Source of the DNA: a virus
DNA length: 64,000 nt
IMG/VR virus record: IMGVR_UViG_3300046804_005798
Coordinates: 1 to 64,000 of that record
Reading direction: 5' to 3' (one strand)
Under the pieces are notes generated by a model that saw only the letters and a list, made by a program, of their open reading frames with translations, did not search any database and was not told the DNA's origin. Of the stretch, positions 2,585 through 64,000 are shown piece after piece (within the stretch, counting starts at the first letter, position 1; each line of letters opens with the position of its first letter). Position numbers and translations under genes: made by a program.

Positions 2585-2617
2585 AAAGCGTCCAAAAGGG
2601 CGCTTTTTTTATAAATA
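2585..2617 (+). terminator. Terminator fused to T4-type late promoter
   Basis: AAAGCGTCC-AAAA-GGGCGCTTT + T run, then TATAAATA at 2610-2617. Confidence 0.75.
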
Positions 2618-2642
2618 CATTCAGTGTTTATAGAAGTATTCA

Positions 2643-3314
2643 ATGACCTTAGATCTTCATAACTTTTTTAAGTATTATGATGATGGTAATTCGAATCACG
2701 TAGCAGCGGTTCAGTGGTTAGAGGATAACCTTCCCGCTCAATTCATGGACGATTCGGAGACAGAGTGGGTTTCAATTTTCAGAACAAAGCCACCAGCTCC
2801 AGAAGTTCTTGCAGTTCCATACTTTAACCAAGTAGATAACTACAGAGATGCACATAGAACTTGCAACTCTTCATCATGTGCTATGTGTCTTGCGTTCCTC
2901 AAGCCAGGAAGCATTAAAGGTGATGACGAATACGTTAAGAAAGTATTTGAGATTGGCGATACAACTGACCATGCCGTACAGACGAAGGTTCTGGCAGCTT
3001 ATGGTGTTAAGTCACACTTTAGTTACAATCTATCTTTTGCTGATATCGATAAAAGTCTGGACGCTGGGAAGCCCGTTGTTATTGGCATACTCCATAGGGG
3101 TTCTCTTTCTGCACCTACTGGTGGGCACATGTGTGTTGTAATTGGCAAGACACCAGATGGTAAAGGATATTATGTAAATGATCCATATGGATCATGTAAT
3201 GATAATTATACTGGGCCAGTAACAAATGGTAAGAAGACCATTTATACCAAAGCAATGCTCAAAGCACGTTGGTGCCCAGGAGGCAACGATGGATGGGGAA
3301 GAATTTTCGATTAA
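2643..3314 (+). CDS. C39-like cysteine peptidase with N-terminal domain shared with the neighbouring lysozyme
   Basis: VPYFNQ..RTCNSSSCAM, GGHMCVVIG, VNDPYG (Cys-His-Asp). Confidence 0.85.
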   Translation: MTLDLHNFFKYYDDGNSNHVAAVQWLEDNLPAQFMDDSETEWVSIFRTKPPAPEVLAVPYFNQVDNYRDAHRTCNSSSCAMCLAFLKPGSIKGDDEYVKKVFEIGDTTDHAVQTKVLAAYGVKSHFSYNLSFADIDKSLDAGKPVVIGILHRGSLSAPTGGHMCVVIGKTPDGKGYYVNDPYGSCNDNYTGPVTNGKKTIYTKAMLKARWCPGGNDGWGRIFD

Positions 3315-3412
3315 TTTTAAGAGGAAGATCTTACAAAGAATCAAAGATCTTACGAATCACGGCAAGCACGTAGAGGCAAATCAACTTTATCAAAAGTATT
3401 TCGGAGGGCAAA

Positions 3413-6297: not shown

Positions 6298-6504
6298 ATG
6301 AAGAACCTAGCAATCATTCTGTCGGCAACGAGTCTGGCAATTAGTGGAGCACTTTGTTATGGTGCCTATGTAACTTATAAAAAAGCAGAAGCAATTCTCA
6401 ATAATCCTGAAGAGTTTGTTGGTGCTGTTGTAGAGAAAAAAATTAAAAGCACTCTACCAATTTTTAAAACAAATAAAGAAAATAAATTTGGATTTCCATT
6501 CTAA
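6298..6504 (+). CDS. Small membrane-anchored hypothetical protein
   Basis: N-terminal TM, GAGGAG SD. Confidence 0.6.
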   Translation: MKNLAIILSATSLAISGALCYGAYVTYKKAEAILNNPEEFVGAVVEKKIKSTLPIFKTNKENKFGFPF

Positions 6505-6597
6505 ATACTAATGCTTATGTGTGGTAACTTAAGCAAAAGATTGGGGGCAGAAATGCCTCTTTTCTTGTATAAATAATATTACCACACATAAAGCAGT
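6501..6597 (+). promoter_or_regulatory. Promoter-hairpin-terminator-promoter cassette A (putative antisense sRNA)
   Basis: CTAAATA 6501; TGCTTA/TAAGCA hairpin; GGGGCA-GAAA-TGCCTC-TTTT terminator; TATAAATA 6568; leader complementary to hairpin loop. Confidence 0.7.
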
Positions 6598-7269
6598 ATG
6601 AATAACTATTACACTTACGCATACTTGCGTGAAGATAAAACTCCCTATTACATCGGCAAGGGTAAAGGTAATAGAGTATATTCTAAAGGTAGAAGAGTAT
6701 TTTTACCTCCTAAAGATAGGTCTAGAATTATATTTCTCAAACAAAATCTTACTGAAGATGAAGCATTTAAGCACGAAATTTATATGATTGGTGTGTTTGG
6801 TAGGAAAGATCTTGGAACTGGTATTCTTCACAATAAAACCAATGGTGGCGATGGATTGAAAAATCCTTCAGAAAAAACCAAAGAAAAATTAAGCAAAGCA
6901 CGACAAGGAAAACCTCTTTCTGAAGAACATAAAAGAAAAATAAGTGAAAAGATGAAAGGTAGAATTCTTTCAGAAGAGCATAAAGAAAAACTGAGTGAAG
7001 TAAAACGGGGTATAATTTTTTCAGAAGAAAGTAAAAGAAAAATGAGTGAATCTCAAAAGGGTAAAACTCTATCAGAAGAACATAAGAAAAAAATAGGAGA
7101 ATCTGGAAGGGGAAGAATACATTCTGATGAAAGTAAAAAGAAAATGAGCGAAAAACTTAAAGGGAAAACTCTTTCAGAAGAACATAAAAGAAAAATTAGT
7201 GAAAAACTTAAAGGGAGAACTCTCTCAGAAGAGCATAAAAGAAAAATTGTTAGACGAAAATCTAAATAG
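6598..7269 (+). CDS. GIY-YIG-like homing endonuclease with NUMOD3 repeats
   Basis: YYTYAY...[16 protein letters not shown], then about 8 repeats of the 17-aa [15 protein letters not shown] unit. Confidence 0.85.
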
Positions 7270-7292
7270 TAAGAGTATATAAAATTAAAAAA

Positions 7293-7724
7293 ATGGCGGA
7301 TAGAGACCCATACATTTATAGAATCAAAGAGATTCATAAGGTTGTAGATGGAGATACAATAGATGCGTCAATTGATTTGGGGTTTGATATAAGTTTAGAA
7401 AAAAGGATTCGTCTTGCTGGTGTCGATACCCCAGAAAGTCGCACGGCAGATGCGAATGAAAAGAAATATGGACTTGAATCAAAAGAATGGTTGAAGCATC
7501 GTTGTGAAGGTGCTAAGAACATTCTCATTAAGACTGAACTTCCAGACTCCACAGAAAAGTATGGAAGAATCATTGGACATTTGTTTATTAATGATGAGGC
7601 AACTTCACTAAACAACCAGATGATTGCTGAAGGTTATGCCTGGGAATACTCAGGAGGAACCAAAGTAAAAGATTTTGAAAAACTTAAACAAATTCGCAAA
7701 TCAAAAGGAACTCTGGTAGAATAA
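7293..7724 (+). CDS. Thermonuclease (SNase-like) family protein
   Basis: VVDGDTID...IRLAGVDTPESR...KYGRIIG...EGYA. Confidence 0.9.
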   Translation: MADRDPYIYRIKEIHKVVDGDTIDASIDLGFDISLEKRIRLAGVDTPESRTADANEKKYGLESKEWLKHRCEGAKNILIKTELPDSTEKYGRIIGHLFINDEATSLNNQMIAEGYAWEYSGGTKVKDFEKLKQIRKSKGTLVE

Positions 7725-7818
7725 ATAGTAATACCTGTGTGGTTCGCATCTATCAGGTAGAAGGGGTGCTTCGGCACCTTTTCTTGTATAAATAGTATTG
7801 CGAACCATAACAGAGTAG
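7721..7818 (+). promoter_or_regulatory. Promoter-hairpin-terminator-promoter cassette B (putative antisense sRNA)
   Basis: ATAAATA 7721; TACCTG/CAGGTA hairpin; GGTGC-TTCG-GCACC-TTTT terminator; TATAAATA 7787; leader complementary to hairpin loop. Confidence 0.7.
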
Positions 7819-8265
7819 ATGAAACACATTCACCATATTGTGCCTAAACATATGGGAGGCACGGATGACCCTATCAATCTTATAGAGTTGAGTGTAGAAG
7901 AACACGCAGAAGCACATAGAAAACTCTATGAGGAATATGGTAATGAATATGATAGGATTGCTTATGAAGCACTATCGGGAATGATAAAAAAGGAAGAAGT
8001 AATACAACAAGTATTGAGTGAGGCAGGAAAAAGAGGAGGTGCTCCAAAAGGTAGAGTTCCTTGGAATAAAGGAAAGAAAGGAGTTCAAAAAAATCCTTAT
8101 CTTGTTGAACTTAATAAAAGCAGAAAAGGAAAATCTATTAGTGATGAAGCAAAAGCAAAAGTTAGTGCTGCTAATAAAGGAAGAAAAAGACCAGATTTGG
8201 TAGAAAGAAATAAAAAAAGAAAAGGAACCTATATAAGCAGGGATGATAAAGGAAGATTTATATGA
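7819..8265 (+). CDS. HNH homing endonuclease
   Basis: HHIVPKHMGGTDDPINLIELSVEEHAEAH; basic NUMOD-like tail (PWNKG). Confidence 0.85.
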   Translation: MKHIHHIVPKHMGGTDDPINLIELSVEEHAEAHRKLYEEYGNEYDRIAYEALSGMIKKEEVIQQVLSEAGKRGGAPKGRVPWNKGKKGVQKNPYLVELNKSRKGKSISDEAKAKVSAANKGRKRPDLVERNKKRKGTYISRDDKGRFI

Positions 8266-23906: not shown

Positions 23907-23949
23907 AAATACAACAACGGGTTAAGAAATGTAACAGGTTCTTAACACA

Positions 23950-24075
23950 AGTTCTTGCCGAAAAGGGACGAAACTCCTCACCGAGACTAGGCAAGTAAAA
24001 GATGTCTCTCATATCCTAGACTGAGGGTGTCTAGGAAATAAGTACCTCCACCATTTCCCTGATGGACTTACTTAC
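23950..24075 (+). ncRNA. PhotoRC-II-like structured psbA 5' UTR
   Basis: GAGAC/GTCTC, TCCTAGAC/GTCTAGGA and CCAT/ATGG stems with AAGTA/TACTT closing, as recalled for cyanophage psbA leaders. Confidence 0.7.
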
Positions 24076-24089
24076 TTTTAAACGTACAA

Positions 24090-26290
24090 ATGACTGCTAC
24101 ACTTTCACAACAAAAACAAACAAATTCCTGGGAACAATTCTGTAACTGGGTAACTTCAACCGATAATAGGTTGTATGTGGGATGGTTTGGAGTCCTTATG
24201 ATTCCTTGCCTACTTGCTGCTACAACTTGTTTCATCATCGCATTCATCGGTGCTCCCCCAGTGGACATTGATGGCATTCGTGAACCAGTTGCTGGATCTC
24301 TAATGTATGGAAATAACATCATCTCTGGTGCTGTTGTTCCAAGTTCTAACGCCATCGGCCTGCATTCGTAAAGGAGTGCCTTATACCAGAAATGGTATAA
24401 GCAAATCGGGTGAATTGCTGGAAACCTAACCCAGTGAAAGGATAAAAGTGTATAAATAGTAATATGGAAACCACTTCTATCCTAATGACTATCTACGAAC
24501 AGTTTATTGAGTATTGTAAAATTGAAAACTTTGATAGTCAGTACTATGAAAAACACCATATTGTTCCAAGACATTCTGGTGGTACTGATGATAAAGAAAA
24601 TCTAATTTACTTACCTCCACATATTCACACACTCGCACATTATTACCGTTGGTTGTCATTTCAAGAAATAGGTGACAAAGTTGCTTACGAAATGAGATGG
24701 AACCAAAATATGGAAGGTGTGAAACTTCGTTCTCAACTTGCTGTTGAAACTAATAAACAAAAGGGTAATACTTTTTGGAATAGTGAATGGCAAAGAGAGC
24801 AGGGACTAAAAGGTGGAACAAAAGGAGGTTCTGCTAATACTCAAAACCAGTTTATTGCTAGACAAAAAGTTGGTAAAACTTATGGAAAGCAAGTTGGTCT
24901 TTCAAGGCAAAAAAGTGATTTGGTAGAAATACTGAAACACTCCACATCTTGGAAACACAAAACTGGAAAAACTGTTACTCTTTTTCCACAAGAAAGTGTG
25001 ACTAAACTTTGTGAAGAACTCCAAAGTATTGAATACTTTGATATTCCAAACAAAGCACTTATAGGAAAACTTCTTCGTGGTGAAAAAAAACAACTTTATG
25101 GGTGGTCTTTTACTGGTATGGCAATCAGCAGCCAAGACACAGACGATACTTCTGTGTAAGGTTCATCGACTAGTCGGTTTCTCAAGCGTGAGATGTAATA
25201 CGACATTAGCGCCCGACACCCTCAATTTAGGGTGATGATATAGTCAGCACCATAAGGAAACTTATGGATTATGCGTTCTACCCCATCTGGGAAGCTGCTT
25301 CCCTAGATGAGTGGCTTTACAACGGTGGTCCTTTCCAACTCGTTGTCTTCCACTTCCTCATCGGCATCTACTGCTATATGGGTCGTGAATGGGAACTTTC
25401 TTACCGTCTAGGTATGCGTCCTTGGATTATGGTTGCTTACAGCGCACCTGTTGCTGCTGCATCTGCGGTATTCCTGGTCTATCCTTTCGGTCAAGGTTCT
25501 TTCTCTGATGCAATGCCTCTGGGTATCTCTGGTACGTTCAACTATATGCTTGTCTTCCAAGCAGAACACAACATTCTGATGCACCCCTTCCATATGCTTG
25601 GAGTTGCTGGTGTCTTCGGTGGTTCTCTGTTCAGTGCTATGCACGGTTCTCTGGTTACTTCCTCGCTGGTTCGTGAGACCACCGAGAATGAGTCCCAGAA
25701 CTATGGTTACAAGTTTGGTCAAGAAGAAGAGACCTACAACATCGTTGCTGCACACGGTTACTTTGGACGCCTTATTTTCCAATATGCTTCCTTCAATAAC
25801 TCCCGTTCGCTGCACTTCTTCCTTGCTGCTTGGCCTGTAGTTGGAATCTGGTTTGCTGCTCTTGGTGTAAGCACCATGGCATTCAACCTTAATGGTTTTA
25901 ACTTTAATCAATCACTTCTATCATCTGATGGTCGTGTGATTAATACCTGGGCTGACATTCTTAACCGAGCAAATCTTGGTTTTGAAGTAATGCACGAGCG
26001 TAGATTTGGGTATTGCGCTCTTTAAATCGGATGAATTGCTGGAAACCCCAAGTGGGCAATCAGCAGCCAAGTCCTAGATACATCTAGGAAAGGTTCAGAG
26101 ACTACCTGAGGAATAAAGTTTCCTTAATAACAGGCACGAGCGTCCGACACCAGAAATGGTGATGATATAGTCCAATCCTGGTAGTAATACCAGACAACCA
26201 AAGGAATAAAAGAATGCCCATAATTTTCCTTTGGACCTTGCATCTGTTGAAGCAACTCCTGTTGCCTTGACTGCACCGACCATCGGGTGA
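24090..26290 (+). CDS. psbA: Photosystem II D1, three exons: 24090-24365, 25276-26001, 26213-26290 (359 aa)
   Basis: Joined exons give continuous D1: ..NAIGLH|FYPIWEA.. and ..EVMHER|[10 protein letters not shown]..; 92+242+25 codons. Confidence 0.97.
24366..25275 (+). mobile_element. Group I intron 1 in psbA (910 nt, after His92) carrying an HNH ORF
   Basis: P1 GCAU|UC with GAGUGC gives U.G at the splice site; core GAATTGCTGGAAAC, AATCAGCAG, GGTTCATCGACTA, GATATAGTC; ends in G. Confidence 0.93.
24464..25159 (+). CDS. Intron-encoded HNH homing endonuclease (start may be ATG 24485)
   Basis: [31 protein letters not shown]; late promoter TATAAATA 24451-24458. Confidence 0.88.
   Translation: METTSILMTIYEQFIEYCKIENFDSQYYEKHHIVPRHSGGTDDKENLIYLPPHIHTLAHYYRWLSFQEIGDKVAYEMRWNQNMEGVKLRSQLAVETNKQKGNTFWNSEWQREQGLKGGTKGGSANTQNQFIARQKVGKTYGKQVGLSRQKSDLVEILKHSTSWKHKTGKTVTLFPQESVTKLCEELQSIEYFDIPNKALIGKLLRGEKKQLYGWSFTGMAISSQDTDDTSV
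26002..26212 (+). mobile_element. Group I intron 2 in psbA (211 nt, ORF-less, after Arg334)
   Basis: P1 GAGCGU with GCGCUC (U.G); core GAATTGCTGGAAAC, AATCAGCAG, GGTTCAGAGACTA, GATATAGTC; ends in G. Confidence 0.93.
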
Positions 26291-26299
26291 TATAATAAA

Positions 26300-26333
26300 G
26301 GGGAACTCTTCGGAGTTCCTTTTTTTATAAATA
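26300..26333 (+). terminator. psbA terminator fused to late promoter
   Basis: GGAACTC-TTCG-GAGTTCC + T run, TATAAATA 26326-26333. Confidence 0.85.
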
Positions 26334-26356
26334 TTTATGCACGAAAGAAAACACGA

Positions 26357-26785
26357 ATGACTAAACTTTACTCTGAACTTTATAGGACTTGTATGACTTG
26401 TAGTAAGGAAAAACTTGCTACTGAGTTCTATGTTCGCAATAAAAAAACTGGAGTTCGACATTCATCTTGTAAAGAATGTGATAAAGCAAGAGTAAAAGCA
26501 CGGCATCAAGCAAATCCAGAACGCACGAGAAATAATGACTTGAAGAGAAACTATGGTATAACCCTCCAAGAACATCAACAAATGTTTGAAGAGCAAAATG
26601 GAGTTTGTGCTACTTGTAAAAGTCCTGGTGATGGAAAATGGAAAAAACTTTGTGTAGACCACGACCATAAGACAGGAAAGGTTAGACAACTTCTTTGTAG
26701 GAGATGTAATATGATATTAGGACAAGCATATGATAATATAAGTCTCTTTGAGGAATATATTAAATACCTACAAAAGCACCAATAA
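26357..26785 (+). CDS. Endonuclease VII-family free-standing homing endonuclease (F-CphI-like)
   Basis: CxxC pairs, LCVDHDHKTGKVRQLLCRRCN (D-H-H-R-N); directly downstream of intron-bearing psbA. Confidence 0.85.
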   Translation: MTKLYSELYRTCMTCSKEKLATEFYVRNKKTGVRHSSCKECDKARVKARHQANPERTRNNDLKRNYGITLQEHQQMFEEQNGVCATCKSPGDGKWKKLCVDHDHKTGKVRQLLCRRCNMILGQAYDNISLFEEYIKYLQKHQ

Positions 26786-26786
26786 T

Positions 26787-26906
26787 ATGTCTCATAATAA
26801 TCAACACGAACCTATGCCTAACTGGGTAATCTGGGCAGGTGTAGGTATGATGATATTCACAGTTCTTATATTTGCCATATTCACTCTTTCAATGATGTAC
26901 TTTTAA
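26787..26906 (+). CDS. Small single-TM protein (39 aa)
   Basis: MSHNNQHEPMPNWVIWAGVGMMIFTVLIFAIFTLSMMYF. Confidence 0.55.
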   Translation: MSHNNQHEPMPNWVIWAGVGMMIFTVLIFAIFTLSMMYF

Positions 26907-27014
26907 CATATGTTACTCATTCTTACATTCTTCATACTCTTCGGAGTGTTTATGTTTATAATGTCGATTACCCAAGATTTATGAGAAATAAATATTCACA
27001 AGTCGCAAGTACTT

Positions 27015-27386
27015 ATGAATATTCTCCAGTCGCCTCAAGACTACTTGTTCAATTTACAGACAACAAGTTCATCAGAAGCAAGACGATTATGGAGAAAAAA
27101 TATAAAAGAAAGTTGGAATCATAAATGCGCTTATTGTAACTCGGAAGAAAATTTGACATTAGATCACGTTGTTCCACAATCAAAAGGTGGTTTGGATATT
27201 ACAAGAAATGTAGTATGCTGTTGTCACTCTTGCAATCAATCTAAAGGACATGAATATTGGAAATTGTGGTATGTTCAACAAGACTTCTATAATGAAGATA
27301 GTTTGAATAAAATAGAAGACTGGATGAAACCACCAAAACCTACGAATCTTTACGTTTATCGTCCAAGAAGGAATAATGCTTCATGA
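27015..27386 (+). CDS. HNH endonuclease (McrA-like)
   Basis: CAYC..LTLDHVVPQSKGG...NVVCCCHSCNQSK. Confidence 0.9.
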   Translation: MNILQSPQDYLFNLQTTSSSEARRLWRKNIKESWNHKCAYCNSEENLTLDHVVPQSKGGLDITRNVVCCCHSCNQSKGHEYWKLWYVQQDFYNEDSLNKIEDWMKPPKPTNLYVYRPRRNNAS

Positions 27387-57715: not shown

Positions 57716-57997
57716 GCGAGTATGGTGGAATCGGTAGACACACCAGACTTATGAAAATTGAGCCTCATTTGGGAAACCTTGTGAGTGTAACTCCTCAAAT
57801 TCGGTGAAACCTGTAAAATGGCAATACCGAGCCAAGCATCGTAAGATGAAGGTGTAGAGACTAGACGGGGAGCACCTAAACCAAAAGGTATGGTGAAGGT
57901 ATAGTCCAGACCACAAACCGAAAGGGTAGTGAAAACTATAGTGGTACGAAAATCTGTTGAGCGTATGCTCGTGGGAGTTCAAGTCTCCCTACTCGCA
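57716..57997 (+). tRNA. trnL: tRNA-Leu(UAA), split by a group I intron (exons 57716-57750, 57949-57997)
   Basis: GCGAGTA/TACTCGC acceptor stem, spliced loop CT-TAA-AA, long variable arm, GTTCAAGTC T-loop. Confidence 0.92.
57751..57948 (+). mobile_element. Group I intron (198 nt) in tRNA-Leu anticodon
   Basis: P1 CUU|A..UUGAG; core AAATTCGGTGAAAC, GGCAATACCGAG, GTGTAGAGACTA, AAGGTATAGTCC; terminal G. Confidence 0.9.
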
Positions 57998-58315: not shown

Positions 58316-58388
58316 GCTGGTGTAACTCAATTGGTAGAGTAATTCTTTTGTAAAGAATAAGTTGCAGGATCGTGCCCTGTCACCAGCT
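58316..58388 (+). tRNA. trnT: tRNA-Thr(UGU) with atypical T-loop
   Basis: GCTGGTG/CACCAGC, ACTC/GAGT D-stem, ATTCT-TT TGT AA-AGAAT, T arm GCAGG-ATCGTGC-CCTGT; 73 nt. Confidence 0.85.
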
Positions 58389-58407
58389 TGAGTTCTATAA
58401 CTCCAAA

Positions 58408-58551
58408 ATGTCACTTATTTCACAAAGAGATAGAGAAGTTGCTGTAAAAGCACTTGAGCATTATTCATCTTTCGTAAAAGACGAATCTGATAAGATGGAA
58501 CTGAATGCTCTTATAAATTGGATTAAATTAGAGATTAGTAAAAATGAATAA
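58408..58551 (+). CDS. Small hypothetical protein (47 aa)
   Basis: MSLISQRDREVAVKALEHY...LINWIKLE. Confidence 0.6.
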   Translation: MSLISQRDREVAVKALEHYSSFVKDESDKMELNALINWIKLEISKNE

Positions 58552-58643
58552 ATATCATTACCTGTGACCGGCAAATTTACAGGAGGAGGGTGAAAATCCC
58601 TCCATTTTTATATAAATAATAATGCCGGTTACAGAGTAGAACT
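58548..58643 (+). promoter_or_regulatory. Promoter-hairpin-terminator-promoter cassette C (putative antisense sRNA)
   Basis: ATAAATA 58548; CCTGTG/TACAGG hairpin; GGAGGG/CCCTCC + T run; TATAAATA 58611; leader complementary to hairpin. Confidence 0.7.
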
Positions 58644-59186
58644 ATGTCAAAGTATGATTTTCTTCATCAACTTGAAGAGGATGAAGAGTGTAAAGAATTA
58701 AGAGATTACCCTGGATATTTTATTACTACGAAAGGAAGAGTTTGGAGCAGTATAAAAGGAAAGGGTAGATGGATGAGTTCATATAAACAAGGGCAATATT
58801 ATTGGGGGGTTATGATTGGTGGAAGAAATGGTGGCAATAAACTTATACATCAATTGGTTGGAAGAAATTTTTTAAATGAATACAGAATTGGACTGAAAAT
58901 CCTTCATAAAAATGAAAATCTAGATCATCCTAATATAAATTTTTTAGATAACCTTTATGTAGGAACTCAAAAAGATAATATTATAGATAAAAATACAAAA
59001 AATAGAGGAAGGCACGGCGGAAAACAACATTTGAGTATAAAGCAGGTTGAAGAAATTAAAACTATGTGGTACAATAGTAGTGGAGAAACCGTTAATAAAT
59101 TTTCTACAAGAATATGTGAGTTATATGGAGTTAGTAGAACTACAATTTCTTATATCATAAAAGAAAAAACTTGGTATTATGTTTAG
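58644..59186 (+). CDS. NUMOD4/HNH-type homing endonuclease
   Basis: YPGYFITTKGRVWS, IHQLVG, ILHKNE..NFLDNLYVGTQKDN, C-terminal HTH. Confidence 0.8.
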   Translation: MSKYDFLHQLEEDEECKELRDYPGYFITTKGRVWSSIKGKGRWMSSYKQGQYYWGVMIGGRNGGNKLIHQLVGRNFLNEYRIGLKILHKNENLDHPNINFLDNLYVGTQKDNIIDKNTKNRGRHGGKQHLSIKQVEEIKTMWYNSSGETVNKFSTRICELYGVSRTTISYIIKEKTWYYV

Positions 59187-60118: not shown

Positions 60119-63100
60119 ATGGGTCTTTCACGCCTTAATAATTTTCTGAAGTCTGCGAGAGGAACAGTTCTCTACGTTAATCCTAATGACTTAGATGCCA
60201 CTGATAGTATTGAAAATCAAGGTAACTCTTTGACTCGCCCATTTAAAACTATTCAGAGAGCATTAATTGAGTCTGCAAGATTTTCGTACCAGAAAGGTTT
60301 AAGTAATGATAGATTTAATAAAACTACAATTATTCTTTACCCTGGAGACCATATTGTAGATAATCGTCCTGGATTCATCCCTGATGGTGAAGGTATTTTT
60401 CTTCGTAGAGACGGAACAGTAACAAATGATTTCCCACCATATGATTTAAGTACAAATTTTGATTTAACAAATTCAGCAAACCAACTTTATAAACTTAACA
60501 GTATTCATGGTGGCGTTATTATCCCTCGCGGAACTTCGATTGTTGGGTTGGACTTAAGAAAGACTAAAATAAGACCAAAATATGTTCCAAATCCATTAAA
60601 TGATAATATTGAAAAATCAACTATTTTTAGAGTTACTGGTGGATGTTATTTCTGGCAGTTTTCTTTGTTTGATGCTGATCCAAATGGACAGTGTTATATT
60701 GATTATACTACCAATCTTTTTGTTCCGAACTTTTCTCACCACAAATTAACTTGTTTTGAATATGCTGATGGTGTAAATGAAGTAAGTATAGATGATGAAT
60801 ACATTACCAATAGAAATTTTGGTAGAACTGATCTTGAAATGTATTATGAAAAGGTTGGTCTTGTTTATGGACAATCATCTGGTCGTCCTATTGAACCAGA
60901 TTATCCAAGTTCAGGTCTTGATATTGAACCAAAAATCGACGAATATCGTATTGTTGGATCAACTGGATTTACTGTAGGTATAGCAAGTATAATATCAGGA
61001 GATGGAATAACTCCTGGTACAACAGTCACTGTAACTACAGAAGATGCTGTTCCTGGATTAGATGTAGATACCCCATTTAGAATTGAAGGTGTAACTGCAG
61101 ATGGTTATGATGGACAATTTGTAGTTACTGAAAAAATATCAGATACTATAATTAAATATCAAGTTCAAAACGAACCAACTCTTGCATTATCTACTTCTGA
61201 AGGAGCAACTCTTACATTACAATCAGATACCGTAAGTTCAGCATCTCCCTATATTTTTAACATCTCTCTTCGTTCCGTATATGGAATGTGTGGAATTCTT
61301 GCTGATGGGGATAAAGCAACTGGATTTAAATCTATGGTTGTTGCACAATTCACTGGAATTGGACTTCAAAAAGATGATAGGGCATTTGTCATTTTCGATG
61401 AAGAAACCGGATTATATCAAGATAGCTCAGTTCCAGGCAATGAGACTTTAAGTAATAATTCTAGATCTATTCATAATCCAGAGTGGAGAAATTTCCACAT
61501 TAAAGCTACTAATGATGCATTTATTCAAAATGTTTCAATTTTTGCAATTGGTTATGCGGAACATTTTGTCACTGAAAGTGGTGGCGACATGTCAATCACT
61601 AACTCAAACTCTAACTTTGGATCTAAAGCATTAGTTGCTAGTGGATTTAAGAGAAATGCTTTTCCTCAAGATGATCTTGGGTATATCACACATATTATAC
61701 CCCCAAAAGAGGTTTCCTTAGATGAATTTACTTATGAATTCAATGCTATTGATGTCGCAAAAACAATTTCTTTTGGGTCAACTGGAAACTTATATCTTTA
61801 TGGTCAAACAAACTCAGATGTTTACCCTGATAATGTGATTGAGGGGTATCGTATAGGTGCAAGACAAAATGATAGACTAAATGTACTTGTTTCTTCATCG
61901 GGAACAGTAACGGAATATTCTTCTAGAATTGTAATGCCACAGTCTCAGACAAGTTCTGAGAAATCATTTAATGTTACTAATAATTCCAATAATGTATTGA
62001 CCATTGGAGCGCATACTCTGACAAATGGGGAAAAAATTAGATTTTTAAGTGATATTGGAAAAATACCAGATGGACTTTTAAATAATCAAGTTTATTATGC
62101 AATCACACAGGTAAATGATGTTGGAATAGGAACGACTCAGATTAAAGTTGCAAAGACTCTAAGTGAGTCTCTTACACATACAAACACATCTCCAAAAAAT
62201 ATAACTTTCAATACTAAAGGAGGTTCTTTAAAAGTTGTAAGTAGGGTTTCTGATAAAATATCAGGTGATATTGGACATCCAATTCAATTTGATACTACGA
62301 GAAATCAGTGGTATATTAGAGTAGCATCGGCAAGCACTGAAAATGGAATTTATAATGTAATTGTAGGATTAGGAACAACTGCTCTTGGGGAAGCAACATC
62401 AAGAACGTATATCAAACGTAAAAAAGACAATAGATCTTTATCCGAAAGAATATATCGTGTCAGATATGTTATACCAAAAGATGTAGGTGCATCCAACGTA
62501 AGACCACCAAGTGATGGATATATTTTACAAGAATCAAACACTTCTATAGGATCTACTGATGGAGAAGTGCAAACTTATTTTGGTAGTGGATCAATTAGCA
62601 ATGCAAATGACCAAAGAAACTTCAGATTCATTGCCAATGCAAATTGGCAAAGTAATATTGCAAATGTTTCCACAGAACTTCCACACAACTTAACTATCGG
62701 TTCTCAAGTTGAAATAATAAATGTAGAGTCTAGTTTAAATCCTACTGGAGTAGGTAATTCTGGATTTAATGGCACATTTTCTGTCACAGGAATTAGTAGT
62801 GCAAAACATTTTTCTTTCAGTTTATTAGATAATCCAGGATCTTTTGCAAATAATACTAATTCTAGGGATACAACCCTCCCGTATTTTAAGAAAAAAGAGC
62901 ATAATAATACATACTATATTTTTAGAAATGAGCAAGTTCAAAAGTTTACACCACAAGTTGAAGATGGTATTTATTATTTGACAATTTTAAATTCATCTGT
63001 TATTCCGTCAGTTAATTATTTTACAGATGAAAAGTTTTCGCAAAATGTCAAAAACTTATATCCACAACTCGATAAGGATAATCCAGTATCAGATCCAATA

Positions 63101-64000
63101 GAGGCAAAATCTTTTGCACAATCTTCATTAATTGGAGAAACTTTAGTTGATGAACCAAAAAATAGTATTACAAAAGAAACTATTTCTAAGAATTTAATAG
63201 ATGTGGGCGTTGGAATTGGTGTTACTAACATTGTTTCAACAAGTTCAACTATTCACACTATTCATACCTCAATTGATCATGGATTAAATCGTATCACCAA
63301 AGTTTCAATTGCAAGTAGTGGACTTGGATATGGATTTGCATCTGCAGGAGATCTCTATAATGCACAATTGGTAGGTATTGGAACATCTATTACAGGAAAA
63401 TATGCAACGGCAAAGGTAACAGTCAATGCGGCTGGTAATATTACCAACGTAGTTATTATGGATGGTGGTAGTGCTTATGGGATAGGAAATTCTTTATCTG
63501 TTGTTGGACTCTCAACTTTTGCTGGATTTACTACTGCAATTGTAAATGTAACCAAAATTTATAATAATGTTGGAGACTCTATAAGAATTAATGGTGTAAG
63601 TTCAGAATCTTATTCATCTTTCAACAATCTTTATAGAATAACTGGAGTTGGTGTAGGATCTGCAAATAGTTTTACTGTAGAGTCTTCTGTTGGAGTTTCT
63701 ACATGGGTTTCTAGCACTGGCATTGGATCAGTTGTAACTTCAAATTCAACAGCATATTTAACTGGAGAGACTTTAAGAATTAGTTCTCTTGTATATGATA
63801 GAGTTAGTGGAATCGCTACAGTTATAACCCAAAACAGACATGGACTTAAGATTGATTCAAAAATTAGAATCGGTGGAGCAAATCAATCACTTTACAATGG
63901 AGACTTTGTAGTTACAGAAAATGTTGGACTTACTTCATTTAGAGTTAAGATTGGAATAGGAACAACTGCACCAACAGCTACTGGAACACTATATGGTTAT
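60119..64000 (+). CDS. Very large virion/tail structural protein (partial, runs off window)
   Basis: MGLSRLNNFLKSARGTVLYVNP..RPFKTIQRALIESARFSY; late promoter ATAAATA upstream; omitted from ORF track, consistent with no stop in window. Confidence 0.85.
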   Translation, partial: MGLSRLNNFLKSARGTVLYVNPNDLDATDSIENQGNSLTRPFKTIQRALIESARFSYQKGLSNDRFNKTTIILYPGDHIVDNRPGFIPDGEGIFLRRDGTVTNDFPPYDLSTNFDLTNSANQLYKLNSIHGGVIIPRGTSIVGLDLRKTKIRPKYVPNPLNDNIEKSTIFRVTGGCYFWQFSLFDADPNGQCYIDYTTNLFVPNFSHHKLTCFEYADGVNEVSIDDEYITNRNFGRTDLEMYYEKVGLVYGQSSGRPIEPDYPSSGLDIEPKIDEYRIVGSTGFTVGIASIISGDGITPGTTVTVTTEDAVPGLDVDTPFRIEGVTADGYDGQFVVTEKISDTIIKYQVQNEPTLALSTSEGATLTLQSDTVSSASPYIFNISLRSVYGMCGILADGDKATGFKSMVVAQFTGIGLQKDDRAFVIFDEETGLYQDSSVPGNETLSNNSRSIHNPEWRNFHIKATNDAFIQNVSIFAIGYAEHFVTESGGDMSITNSNSNFGSKALVASGFKRNAFPQDDLGYITHIIPPKEVSLDEFTYEFNAIDVAKTISFGSTGNLYLYGQTNSDVYPDNVIEGYRIGARQNDRLNVLVSSSGTVTEYSSRIVMPQSQTSSEKSFNVTNNSNNVLTIGAHTLTNGEKIRFLSDIGKIPDGLLNNQVYYAITQVNDVGIGTTQIKVAKTLSESLTHTNTSPKNITFNTKGGSLKVVSRVSDKISGDIGHPIQFDTTRNQWYIRVASASTENGIYNVIVGLGTTALGEATSRTYIKRKKDNRSLSERIYRVRYVIPKDVGASNVRPPSDGYILQESNTSIGSTDGEVQTYFGSGSISNANDQRNFRFIANANWQSNIANVSTELPHNLTIGSQVEIINVESSLNPTGVGNSGFNGTFSVTGISSAKHFSFSLLDNPGSFANNTNSRDTTLPYFKKKEHNNTYYIFRNEQVQKFTPQVEDGIYYLTILNSSVIPSVNYFTDEKFSQNVKNLYPQLDKDNPVSDPIEAKSFAQSSLIGETLVDEPKNSITKETISKNLIDVGVGIGVTNIVSTSSTIHTIHTSIDHGLNRITKVSIASSGLGYGFASAGDLYNAQLVGIGTSITGKYATAKVTVNAAGNITNVVIMDGGSAYGIGNSLSVVGLSTFAGFTTAIVNVTKIYNNVGDSIRINGVSSESYSSFNNLYRITGVGVGSANSFTVESSVGVSTWVSSTGIGSVVTSNSTAYLTGETLRISSLVYDRVSGIATVITQNRHGLKIDSKIRIGGANQSLYNGDFVVTENVGLTSFRVKIGIGTTAPTATGTLYGY

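Follow-up and report, generated by a model that had tools for sequence, protein, structure and literature searches.

In T4-like phages the principal mobile DNA is the homing endonuclease gene, and a standing question is how such genes spare the phage that carries them. The stretch analysed here, 64,000 nucleotides of a viral genome (IMG/VR virus record IMGVR_UViG_3300046804_005798, positions 1 to 64,000; hereafter the window), raises this question in a specific form, in that three endonuclease genes were claimed in an earlier note to be preceded by one and the same arrangement of putative RNA control elements. The note had offered two accounts of the arrangement, a separately promoted and terminated short RNA directed against the nuclease mRNA, or an alternative fold in read-through RNA. 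We asked what this module, which is about 100 bases long and lies directly 5' of selfish nuclease genes in T4-like cyanophages, might do for the genes that it precedes.

All three genes are on the plus strand. The first (6598-7269, 223 aa) is a GIY-YIG-type/NUMOD3 homing endonuclease gene, with matches to NUMOD3 (9e-18) and to phrog_314 homing endonuclease (5e-25) and a product whose N-terminus reads as a GIY-YIG motif, and the second (7819-8265, 148 aa) is an HNH homing endonuclease gene (HNH Pfam match, 1.3e-3; phrog_655, 2e-16), both as had been proposed. The NUMOD4 assignment of the third did not stand; the product of 58644-59186 (180 aa) has no Pfam match, and its designation as an HNH-type endonuclease comes from a PHROG match only (phrog_59 HNH endonuclease, 8e-22).

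Inspection of the sequence gave the same part order, at the coordinates previously described, in all three copies (A, 6500-6600; B, 7720-7821; C, 58547-58646; plus strand throughout). Copy A begins with an upstream late-promoter-like box, P1 (TCTAAATA, 6500-6507), of which the TAA at 6502-6504 is also the stop codon of the ORF at 6298-6504. A local hairpin follows (6512-6535; stem 6512-6517/6530-6535, loop 6518-6529), then a predicted intrinsic terminator (6543-6567) composed of a GC stem with a GAAA loop (6543-6560) and the run TTTCTTG, and then an inner late-promoter box, P2 (TATAAATA, 6568-6575), 23 nt 5' of the ATG. Laid over these parts is a long-range helix, whose 5' strand, the anti-leader (6512-6527), is shared with the local hairpin, and whose leader strand (6579-6595) stops 2 nt short of the ATG at 6598. 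The perfect complementarity reported for this copy is real: TATGTGTGGTAA (6516-6527) is the exact reverse complement of TTACCACACATA (6579-6590), and the helix is lengthened by TGCTT/AAGCA, with one bulged A.

In copy B the P1 box (AATAAATA, 7720-7727) contains the stop codon (TAA, 7722-7724) of an SNase-like gene (7293-7724), and is followed by a local hairpin (7732-7759; stem 7732-7737/7754-7759) that overlaps the anti-leader strand (7732-7748), a terminator (7763-7785; GGGGTGC-UUCG-GCACC, then TTTTCTT), P2 (TATAAATA, 7787-7794, 25 nt 5' of the ATG), and a leader strand (7799-7817) that contains a purine-rich AGAG and stops 1 nt short of the ATG at 7819. Copy C has P1 (AATAAATA, 58547-58554, with TAA at 58549-58551), a combined anti-leader and local hairpin region (58559-58583; anti-leader 58559-58573, hairpin 58561-58567/58577-58583), a terminator (58585-58610; GGAGGG...CCCTCC, then ATTTTTA), P2 (TATAAATA, 58611-58618, 26 nt 5' of the ATG) and a leader strand (58623-58638) before the ATG at 58644; the apparent upstream ORF here (58372-58551) overlaps a tRNA-Thr gene (58316-58388) and may not be a real gene. 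The arms are separated by about 50 nt in the cassettes (51 nt in copy A), and the terminators, with stems of 6-7 bp, GAAA or UUCG loops and a following TTTTCTT, are by sequence intrinsic terminators. The cassette is absent from Rfam: no family covered the copies at gathering threshold, and none appeared at E <= 1 in 6400-7900. Sigma-70-like sites between 5500 and 9000 were not in excess (13, against 12.4 expected by chance).

The earlier note had suggested a covariance-model search for co-occurrence with endonuclease genes, and this proved informative. Our model (R1) found 95 matches in the sequence searched (74 in one sample of 99 sources and 21 in another of 28), 6 of them in Synechococcus phage S-SRM01, and it gave three strong matches in the window's own contig. 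A weak fourth match in the contig (2525-2641, E = 0.04) was set aside as a plain terminator with TATAAATA before an endolysin-like gene, lacking the arms. When copies A, B and C were compared with phage records by BLAST, full-length matches were found in S-SRM01 only; shorter matches in Syn33, S-RIM12, P-TIM40 and S-H25 span just the terminator-promoter core. In the annotated regions of three of these phages the core stands without arms directly before other genes, namely large ORFs of structural type in Syn33 and S-H25 and, in P-TIM40, a small ORF that follows psbA. R1 itself gave no match in P-TIM40, Syn33, S-H25, Syn9, S-PM2 or P-SSM2, by the same procedure that gives 6 in S-SRM01, and published marine cyanophage transcriptomes therefore probably cannot decide how the cassette works. 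One family member (L015:6-119) is a hybrid with the arm of one type and the leader of another, which suggests recombination within the core.

The association with endonuclease genes extends across the family. All 53 ORFs of at least 50 aa lying 3' of family cassettes fall in endonuclease groups, and 61 of 70 distinct model matches have an ORF matching those groups, the other nine comprising five cut off by the end of the locus, one decayed, one orphan, one generic terminator-promoter match and one unclassified. The readable downstream genes are endonuclease genes throughout, save for the unclassified one, even where the database says otherwise, as with an S-SRM01 gene behind a cassette that is annotated as 'translation initiation factor 2'. 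The upstream genes sampled are diverse (psbA, gp32, tail tube, tail fibre, an HNH gene), and split inteins were absent from them. Of 46 nuclease genes, 11 have a late-promoter box at their 3' end, and a mid-gene control gave 2 of 46; the box is no general property of these genes, and we dropped the idea that it forms a flanking repeat.

Whether the complementarity is maintained by selection was addressed with 70 distinct rows, using 500 shuffles and slid controls. The claim that pairing between loop and leader is kept as the sequences diverge was borne out in full: in the inner helix all seven pairs show compensatory change and 99.2% of cells are paired, and the outer helix (3 of 5 pairs; 95.9%) and the terminator stem (5 of 6 pairs; 95.9%) behave similarly. 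None of the 500 shuffles reached the observed covariation score, the slid controls were 32-51% paired, and RNAalifold on a plain MAFFT alignment recovered the same seven inner-helix pairs. The local hairpin is also paired in 89% of cells, with compensatory change in three of its five pairs in an alignment that was not fitted to it. The boundaries of the long-range helix are sharp, pairing falling from 94-97% to 10-33% one column further out, and both of its strands start at the fifth nucleotide after a late-promoter box. In sequence the arms vary more than any other part of the cassette, yet it is in them that complementarity is kept best.

Folding gave a consistent picture. Each of the three copies, folded from P1 through to the ATG, adopts the long-range helix with the terminator nested inside it (copies A, B and C: -34.1, -39.8 and -32.8 kcal/mol; z = -6.4, -6.8 and -5.6), and none of 200 shuffles was as good. 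The cognate arm-leader duplexes in the window (-21.8, -23.3 and -25.1 kcal/mol) are far more stable than the crosses (-4.7 to -14.4 kcal/mol), and the same holds in the family at large (-22.7 +/- 1.9 kcal/mol, against about -11 kcal/mol for non-cognate pairs). As for the arm serving as an attenuator or antiterminator, no pairing between it and the terminator stem was seen by eye. The predicted energy for opening the region from -15 to +6 around the AUG (n = 63 cassettes) is 12.0 +/- 2.5 kcal/mol in the read-through RNA and 3.5 +/- 2.4 kcal/mol in the P2 transcript, a predicted difference of about 8.5 kcal/mol, which together with the covariation lends good support to the alternative fold in read-through RNA. 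The helix reaches to 1-9 nt 5' of the AUG. The AUG itself is usually outside it and the cassettes have no clear Shine-Dalgarno sequence, so it is the predicted accessibility that carries the expected effect on translation.

By sequence, P1 and P2 fit the T4-family late-promoter type, an 8-bp TATAAATA-type box roughly one helical turn from the start, with an AT-rich segment after it and no -35 element. P2 is TATAAATA in 67-68 of 69 members, a sample that was drawn with a word containing TATAAATA; among intact copies lacking the exact sampling word, a reading of the aligned rows still gave TATAAATA in 11 of 12. P1 contains TAAATA in 68 of 69 and reads NATAAATA in 49/69 and NCTAAATA in 20/69. The spacer after it is always 4 nt, the predicted start is a purine in all 69 members, and the box doubles as the upstream stop codon in just 21 of 56 cases. 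Elsewhere in the contig, P2-like boxes lie 21-36 nt 5' of start codons, consistent with late promoters, and the P1-like boxes NATAAATA and NCTAAATA occur at the same distance before other genes. The cyanomyovirus late promoter has been given as NATAAATA (PMC2984593), and variants have been reported in T4 relatives (PMC2984593), including the a/gC variant of Aeh1 (PMC2988020).

Taken as a whole, these observations establish a conserved layout, helices that all covary, a strict tie to endonuclease genes and start regions that are predicted to differ in accessibility. We think it probable that free-standing homing endonuclease genes in T4-like cyanophages bring their own expression gate with them in the form of this cassette, which would be complete in itself and act as a translational lock in cis. 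Transcription arriving from the upstream gene or from P1 would mostly halt at the T4-style intrinsic terminator, and RNA that reads through would contain both arms and form a helix of 15-19 bp, with the terminator hairpin nested within it, that buries the leader of about 20 nt to within a few bases of the AUG and leaves the nuclease untranslated. P2 lies between the arms, and the late transcript predicted from it would begin exactly where the pairing of the 3' arm begins and would not include the inhibitory 5' strand; its start region would be open, and the nuclease would be translated late. Promoter activity, termination and the effect on translation we infer from the architecture.

The principle of such a lock is already in print, and the statement in the earlier note that no description of the arrangement was known was too strong. 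In I-TevI, I-TevII, I-TevIII, segB and Aeh1 mobE a late promoter lies between the arms of a start-occluding helix, a logic treated as established in the relevant passages of PMC2988022. Like those gates, the cassette is predicted to occlude the start region when the transcript is long, has a late promoter so placed that late RNA would not contain the inhibitory strand, and precedes a homing endonuclease gene lying among other transcription units. It differs in enclosing between its arms a complete terminator together with the 3' half of the competing local hairpin stem, and in having a second late-promoter box at a constant distance before the 5' arm. It also lacks a clear Shine-Dalgarno sequence, and one type of cassette serves both GIY-YIG and HNH genes.

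Another precedent is that of Dassa et al. (2009; PMC2677866), whose passages on endonuclease genes at the 'fractured gene' loci of marine metagenomes describe upstream hairpins that contain TATAAATA and a pair of motifs complementary to each other, and propose the gate logic for them. By description, which was the means of comparison, these hairpins are probably the same family or a sister one. The upstream genes sampled here are not split inteins, unlike the Dassa loci, and those passages mention no second upstream promoter box, nested terminator or local hairpin. The literature consulted yielded no description of the upstream box, the local hairpin or a short RNA, and the words promoter, terminator and hairpin are absent from the S-SRM01 genome paper. 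As far as we found, and with Dassa et al. represented by passages, three features are undescribed: a P1 box that is near-invariant and constant in its spacing, a local hairpin that is conserved, and a terminator nested within the long-range helix.

These same features do not sit easily with a lock that acts purely in cis. Neither the conserved P1 box nor the conserved local hairpin has a role in such a lock, and the hairpin competes with the long-range helix. With a terminator nested inside the helix, read-through RNA should be scarce, and the lock might seldom be used. Nor is the gate simply one of early versus late expression, given that the upstream genes include late structural ones (tail tube, tail fibre). 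The conservation of P1, the local hairpin and the nested terminator keep alive the idea of a trans-acting RNA of about 54 nt, which could coexist with the cis lock as an added action of the terminated transcript.

In its full form, this alternative makes the cassette a tandem sRNA-target module, a reading that is possible but that we hold to be distinctly the less likely. An active P1 would yield a short RNA consisting of the local hairpin and the terminator, with a cassette-specific anti-leader in its loop. Binding in trans to the opening 17-20 nt of the P2 mRNA, this RNA would lower nuclease output or set a threshold for it. Upstream mRNAs that stop at the terminator would have the same hairpin at their 3' ends, and these ends could have the same effect. 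The sequence speaks for this reading more strongly than the earlier note could show. The near-invariance of P1, its spacing and its start purine count in its favour, both forms of P1 are reported late-promoter variants and stand before other genes of the contig, and the sharp helix boundaries, with both strands beginning at the fifth nucleotide after a late-promoter box, fit as well; even so, P1 deviates from the perfect TATAAATA that P2 keeps. The predicted short RNA (54 +/- 3 nt) folds as two hairpins (z = -4.5, -4.8 and -2.8), its core seed is predicted to be unpaired with a probability of 0.75, and net dimer formation is predicted at -12.5 +/- 2.2 kcal/mol. Covariation of the local hairpin also favours this reading, but the hairpin might have another use, in co-transcriptional folding or in stabilising 3' ends. 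A small ORF inside the short RNA (21 codons would be possible in copy A) was dropped as a candidate, its start column being ATG, GTG or ATA across the family.

Two further lines of evidence bear on the short RNA. Cassettes residing in the same contig cross-pair slightly less than those of different contigs (-9.3 vs -10.9 kcal/mol; permutation P = 0.005 for the mean), but relatedness confounds this test of orthogonality, and strong crosses do not differ significantly in their share (P = 0.13). In addition, of 91 matches to the pattern of P1 box, 4 nt and arm start, 85 were complete cassettes and the other six were one orphan (L097:557-680), one truncated remnant (L023 near 4008) and four chance-like matches; orphan modules of P1, hairpin and terminator are so rare that nothing suggests a life for the RNA apart from the gene, and we rejected free-standing anti-endonuclease RNAs on this count. 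Nor is any benefit evident in making repressor and target simultaneously from two late promoters. That each nuclease gene has a private repressor with a mutually orthogonal seed, paired on the same strand with a second late promoter about 80 nt downstream whose mRNA would open with some 17-20 nt exactly complementary to seed and arm, is a tentative proposal drawn from sequence features, and 'antitoxin-like', as the short RNA had been called, is a label by analogy.

Adjacent, non-overlapping antisense regulators of toxic genes are known, IstR-1/tisB and OrzO/zorO among them. Early termination after a phage late promoter is reported to produce the short RNA StxS (PMC7547250). The putative cyanophage RNA would resemble all of these in being short, terminated, encoded beside its target and able to pair with a stretch of about 20 nt in the 5' part of the target; it would differ in that regulator and target are in same-strand tandem and both driven by late promoters, and in being known from sequence.

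Long-range coupling of the MS2 type offers an analogy for another alternative, structure-mediated translational coupling, in which the helix places the upstream stop codon beside the nuclease start and ribosomes terminating there melt the outer pairs, allowing low-level initiation on read-through RNA. The longest upstream frame does end from -10 to +7 nt relative to the P1 box in 50 of 56 cases, which is 5-20 nt before the 5' arm, and the outer helix pairs the first bases of the arm with the leader bases nearest the AUG. The stop, however, varies in frame and offset and lies 15-57 nt upstream of the box in the remaining 6 of 56, copy C is preceded by a tRNA gene with no clear ORF, and P1, P2 and the terminator are all left unexplained, and we regard this account as very improbable.

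The PeSL cassettes of T4-like phages (Arbiol 2010; Comeau 2014; PMC4122927, PMC2839356), as characterised in portions of those papers, are likewise short, repeated intergenic modules that combine a terminator with a promoter and that recombination seems to swap, but they have early promoters and are untied to endonuclease genes or to leader complementarity, whereas the promoters here are of late type, not the early (sigma-70-type) kind by which PeSLs are recognised, and arm-leader pairing is the defining feature. That the cassette is a mobile promoter-terminator repeat for PeSL-like recombination or shuffling, with no RNA-structure function, has in its favour the high similarity of the terminator-promoter core among copies, the occurrence of that core alone before structural genes of Syn33, S-RIM12, P-TIM40 and S-H25, and the hybrid cassette, but it is the least credible of the readings, since compensatory change in three helices, with arms that are poorly conserved in sequence yet best conserved in complementarity, indicates selection on RNA or single-strand pairing and not repeat homology.

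What emerges is one portable, strongly covarying control module that has been adopted by unrelated nuclease families (GIY-YIG, HNH) within one cyanophage group. The module provides an annotation rule, in that its presence flags endonuclease genes that are listed as 'hypothetical' or misnamed in databases, and the cassettes form a natural set of orthogonal arm-leader pairs with which RNA-based gating can be tested. If P1 is active, this would be the first case known to us of a selfish gene of a lytic phage with its own same-strand antisense RNA.

The same parts, in the same order, precede all three nuclease starts in the window (6598, 7819 and 58644) on inspection of the sequence. A late-promoter-like box, P1 (TCTAAATA at 6500-6507 in copy A; AATAAATA at 7720-7727 in copy B and at 58547-58554 in copy C), is followed by four unpaired bases and a local hairpin of 6-7 bp with a loop of 9-16 nt; 3' of this, beyond a short spacer rich in A, a GC stem closed by a GAAA- or UUCG-type loop leads into a T run, past which lie a second box, P2 (TATAAATA), five bases and a leader of ~20 nt. 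Read in reverse complement, the leader matches the hairpin 5' arm and the 5' portion of the loop, save for one or two bulged A. The layout described in the earlier note agrees with this base for base.

Folded from the P1 box to the ATG, each copy forms a single long helix that encloses the terminator, at -32.8 to -39.8 kcal/mol and z = -5.6 to -6.8, a stability matched by 0 of 200 shuffles; the segment from five bases past P1 to the T run, folded alone, gives two clean hairpins in all three. The arm pairs are unrelated in sequence among the copies and each matches its own leader, with cognate duplexes of -21.8, -23.3 and -25.1 kcal/mol versus -4.7 to -14.4 for the crosses. The claim that the loops vary while complementarity is kept is thus borne out here, and also by compensatory change across the family.

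The window belongs to a 72.9-kb virus contig whose only named relative by BLAST is S-SRM01, a freshwater Synechococcus phage (Kyanoviridae), the matching part being the cassette itself. Scanning IMG/VR with a 16-base word across the T run and TATAAATA gave at least 120 loci and, among the matches listed, 123 usable occurrences, S-SRM01 and the window's contig included. An exact leader complement of at least 8 nt lies 34-52 nt before the T run in 61 of the 123 (55 distinct sequences); in a control segment farther downstream the complements reach at most 6-9 nt. The 55 sequences plus copy C formed an alignment (A1) from which a covariance model (R1) was derived. R1 finds the three copies on the window's contig at E ~1e-12 to 1e-17, with one further weak match to a generic terminator-promoter, six copies in S-SRM01, 74 matches in 99 sources and 21 in 28 additional sources. 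It has no match in P-TIM40, Syn33, S-H25, Syn9, S-PM2 or P-SSM2, and an Rfam search over the cassette returned no family.

Covariation was scored on the model alignment, which has 70 distinct rows. Compensatory change is seen at all 7 pairs of the inner long-range helix, where 99.2% of cells are paired and a single pair takes up to four Watson-Crick types; it is seen at 3 of 5 pairs of the outer helix, adjoining the AUG (95.9% paired), and at 5 of 6 of the terminator stem (95.9%). The observed scores were reached by none of 500 shuffles, shifting the partner by 1-3 columns reduced pairing to 32-51%, and RNAalifold recovered the same seven core pairs from an unfitted MAFFT alignment. The helix ends are sharp, pairing falling from 94-97% to 10-33% one column outside either end. 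The local hairpin, to which the alignment was not fitted, is paired in 89.3% of cells with compensatory change at 3 of 5 pairs, and RNAfold forms it in the isolated segment of almost all of the 56 sequences (mean -7.8 kcal/mol, mean z -1.9). One column of the 5' arm, C or U, changes in concert with the local 3' arm (CG 38, UA 22) and also with the leader (CG 38, UA 29), so that the two alternative folds both appear to be under selection.

P2 reads TATAAATA throughout the sample, partly by construction, given that the sampling word contains it; the box is also present in 11 of the 12 intact copies that lack the exact word, as read from the aligned rows. P1 lay outside every selection step and its counts are therefore unbiased. 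Its TAAATA occurs in 68/69. Two bases stand before it, the first A (49) or C (20) and the second free to vary; exactly four variable bases separate the box from the helix, and the sixth base past the box is a purine in 69/69. The box doubles as the upstream stop codon in just 21 of 56 cases, the longest upstream frame elsewhere ending at varied offsets and frames, so that a stop-codon role cannot account for its invariance. On this contig TATAAATA, NATAAATA and NCTAAATA boxes, mostly intergenic, lie 21-36 nt before the starts of other genes. In the available text of the reports concerned, the cyanomyovirus late promoter is given as NATAAATA (PMC2984593), the T4 box accepts A at -13, and Aeh1 boxes have a/gC at -13/-12 (PMC2988020). 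P1 resembles a late promoter when judged against the other boxes of this genome.

The tie to endonuclease genes is strict. Behind copy A lies a GIY-YIG-type gene (6598-7269) with NUMOD3 repeats, a match to phrog_314 ('homing endonuclease') and an N-terminus that reads as the GIY-YIG motif, and behind copy B a gene that is HNH by family match (7819-8265), both as first proposed; the third (58644-59186) matches HNH-endonuclease PHROGs without a Pfam family, and the proposed NUMOD4 label found no confirmation. Across the family, all 53 downstream ORFs of at least 50 aa are GIY-YIG-like or HNH-like, and 61 of the 70 distinct R1 matches precede an ORF of this set, in line with the co-occurrence that the earlier note had suggested checking with a covariance model. 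The other nine comprise five that run off the locus end, one decayed gene, one orphan, one generic terminator-promoter and one protein of unknown family (143 aa, weak HNH match only). The genes 5' of cassettes are diverse (psbA, gp32, tail tube, tail fibre, another HNH gene). In S-SRM01 (record 62515-63273; 2615-3373 of the sampled locus L002), the public annotation names a cassette-preceded, NUMOD3-rich endonuclease gene 'translation initiation factor 2', probably a low-complexity mis-call.

Three other endonuclease genes of the window lack the cassette and have a late-promoter box alone in front, with a preceding terminator at the second: HNH at 24464-25159, endonuclease VII type at 26357-26785 and HNH at 27015-27386. 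They lie in a psbA region (23943-27386) dense with mobile elements, which holds a PhotoRC-II RNA (23943-24049), psbA in pieces (24090-24371 and 25264-26025) on either side of the first HNH gene, and a group I intron (25952-26194). A second group I intron (57741-57930) and a tRNA-Thr(TGT) gene (58316-58388) stand just 5' of copy C; the frame 58372-58551, the 'upstream ORF' of that copy, overlaps the tRNA gene and may not be a real gene. A late-promoter-like TCTAAATA occupies 7261-7268, in the final codons of the GIY-YIG gene and 25 nt before an SNase-like nuclease gene (7293-7724, phrog_452). This mobile gene seems to carry a promoter for its neighbour, as described for some T4 seg/mob genes; in the cassette family, such a box lies near the nuclease gene 3' end in 11 of 46.

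Degenerate states also occur: an orphan with P1, hairpin and stem, lacking P2, leader and nuclease gene and followed by a structural-looking gene (L097:557-680, minus strand); a hybrid without P1 in which arm and leader differ in type (L015:6-119, minus strand); and an intact cassette before a 5-codon gene remnant (L099:6756-6871, minus strand). At 2585-2617 of the window a plain terminator (GCGTCC-AAAA-GGGCGC plus T run) runs straight into a TATAAATA box, and an endolysin-like gene (2643-3314) begins 26 nt farther on. This phage uses the terminator/late-promoter junction as a general module, to which the endonuclease cassette adds arms and P1. The core alone, 27-38 nt and 81-93% identical to copy A, is found in marine cyanophages, before large structural-type ORFs in Syn33 (L134, 1501-1528) and S-H25 (L135, 1501-1537) and before a small ORF that follows psbA in P-TIM40 (L133, 1501-1538), which hints at a conserved composite module that would be a late-type counterpart of the PeSLs.

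The principle of such gating is already known. For T4 I-TevI, I-TevII, I-TevIII and segB and Aeh1 mobE, the available text of one report describes a stable helix that hides the translation start on long transcripts and a late promoter within it that yields transcripts unable to form it (PMC2988022). Before marine-metagenome endonuclease genes, Dassa et al. 2009 saw hairpins that contain TATAAATA and a pair of conserved motifs complementary to each other, to which they gave the same interpretation (PMC2677866); going by the accessible part of that paper, these are probably this family or a sister family. The earlier note's statement that it knew of no description is accordingly an overstatement. 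In the literature, the available part of the S-SRM01 genome paper and Rfam we found no description of the near-invariant second promoter box, covarying local hairpin and nested terminator, nor of the family's size, strict endonuclease tie, use by unrelated nuclease families and near-orthogonal arms; the supplementary motifs of Dassa et al. may overlap with these.

The present cassette fits the T4-type model. Over 63 cassettes, opening -15..+6 around the AUG is predicted to cost 12.0 ± 2.5 kcal/mol in read-through RNA and 12.6 in P1-started RNA, and 3.5 ± 2.4 kcal/mol in P2-started RNA. Because these predicted costs fit that model, we favour, with moderate confidence, a cis lock with a late-promoter key, reinforced by the terminator, as the main function.

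P1 and the local hairpin would be jobless in a pure cis lock, with which the hairpin even competes. Compatible with the lock, and in our estimate possible though rather doubtful, is that P1 fires to give a hairpin-terminator RNA of 54 ± 3 nt that would pair in trans with the 5' end of P2 mRNA. Prediction leaves its seed 75% unpaired and gives a net pairing of -12.5 ± 2.2 kcal/mol, and both helix strands begin at the fifth base past a late-promoter box, which is natural if the complementarity is limited to two transcripts and unneeded by a cis lock. Co-resident cassettes cross-pair slightly less than those on different contigs (mean -9.3 vs -10.9 kcal/mol, permutation P = 0.005), but this comparison is confounded by relatedness, and the difference in strong crosses (2.3% vs 6.7%, P = 0.13) is not significant. 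A trans role is also weakened by the near absence of orphan modules, and the local hairpin could equally steer co-transcriptional folding or stabilise 3' ends. Translational coupling, with ribosomes opening the outer helix as they terminate, is very improbable, and a purely DNA-level repeat the least likely of all.

Under the cis lock, the terminator would halt most incoming transcription, any read-through RNA would carry both arms and hide the nuclease start in the helix, and the P2 transcript, devoid of the 5' arm, would leave the start region open. Since some of the upstream genes are late structural genes, the cassette is better described as an insulator than as a simple early/late switch, one that would make nuclease synthesis depend on P2 alone.
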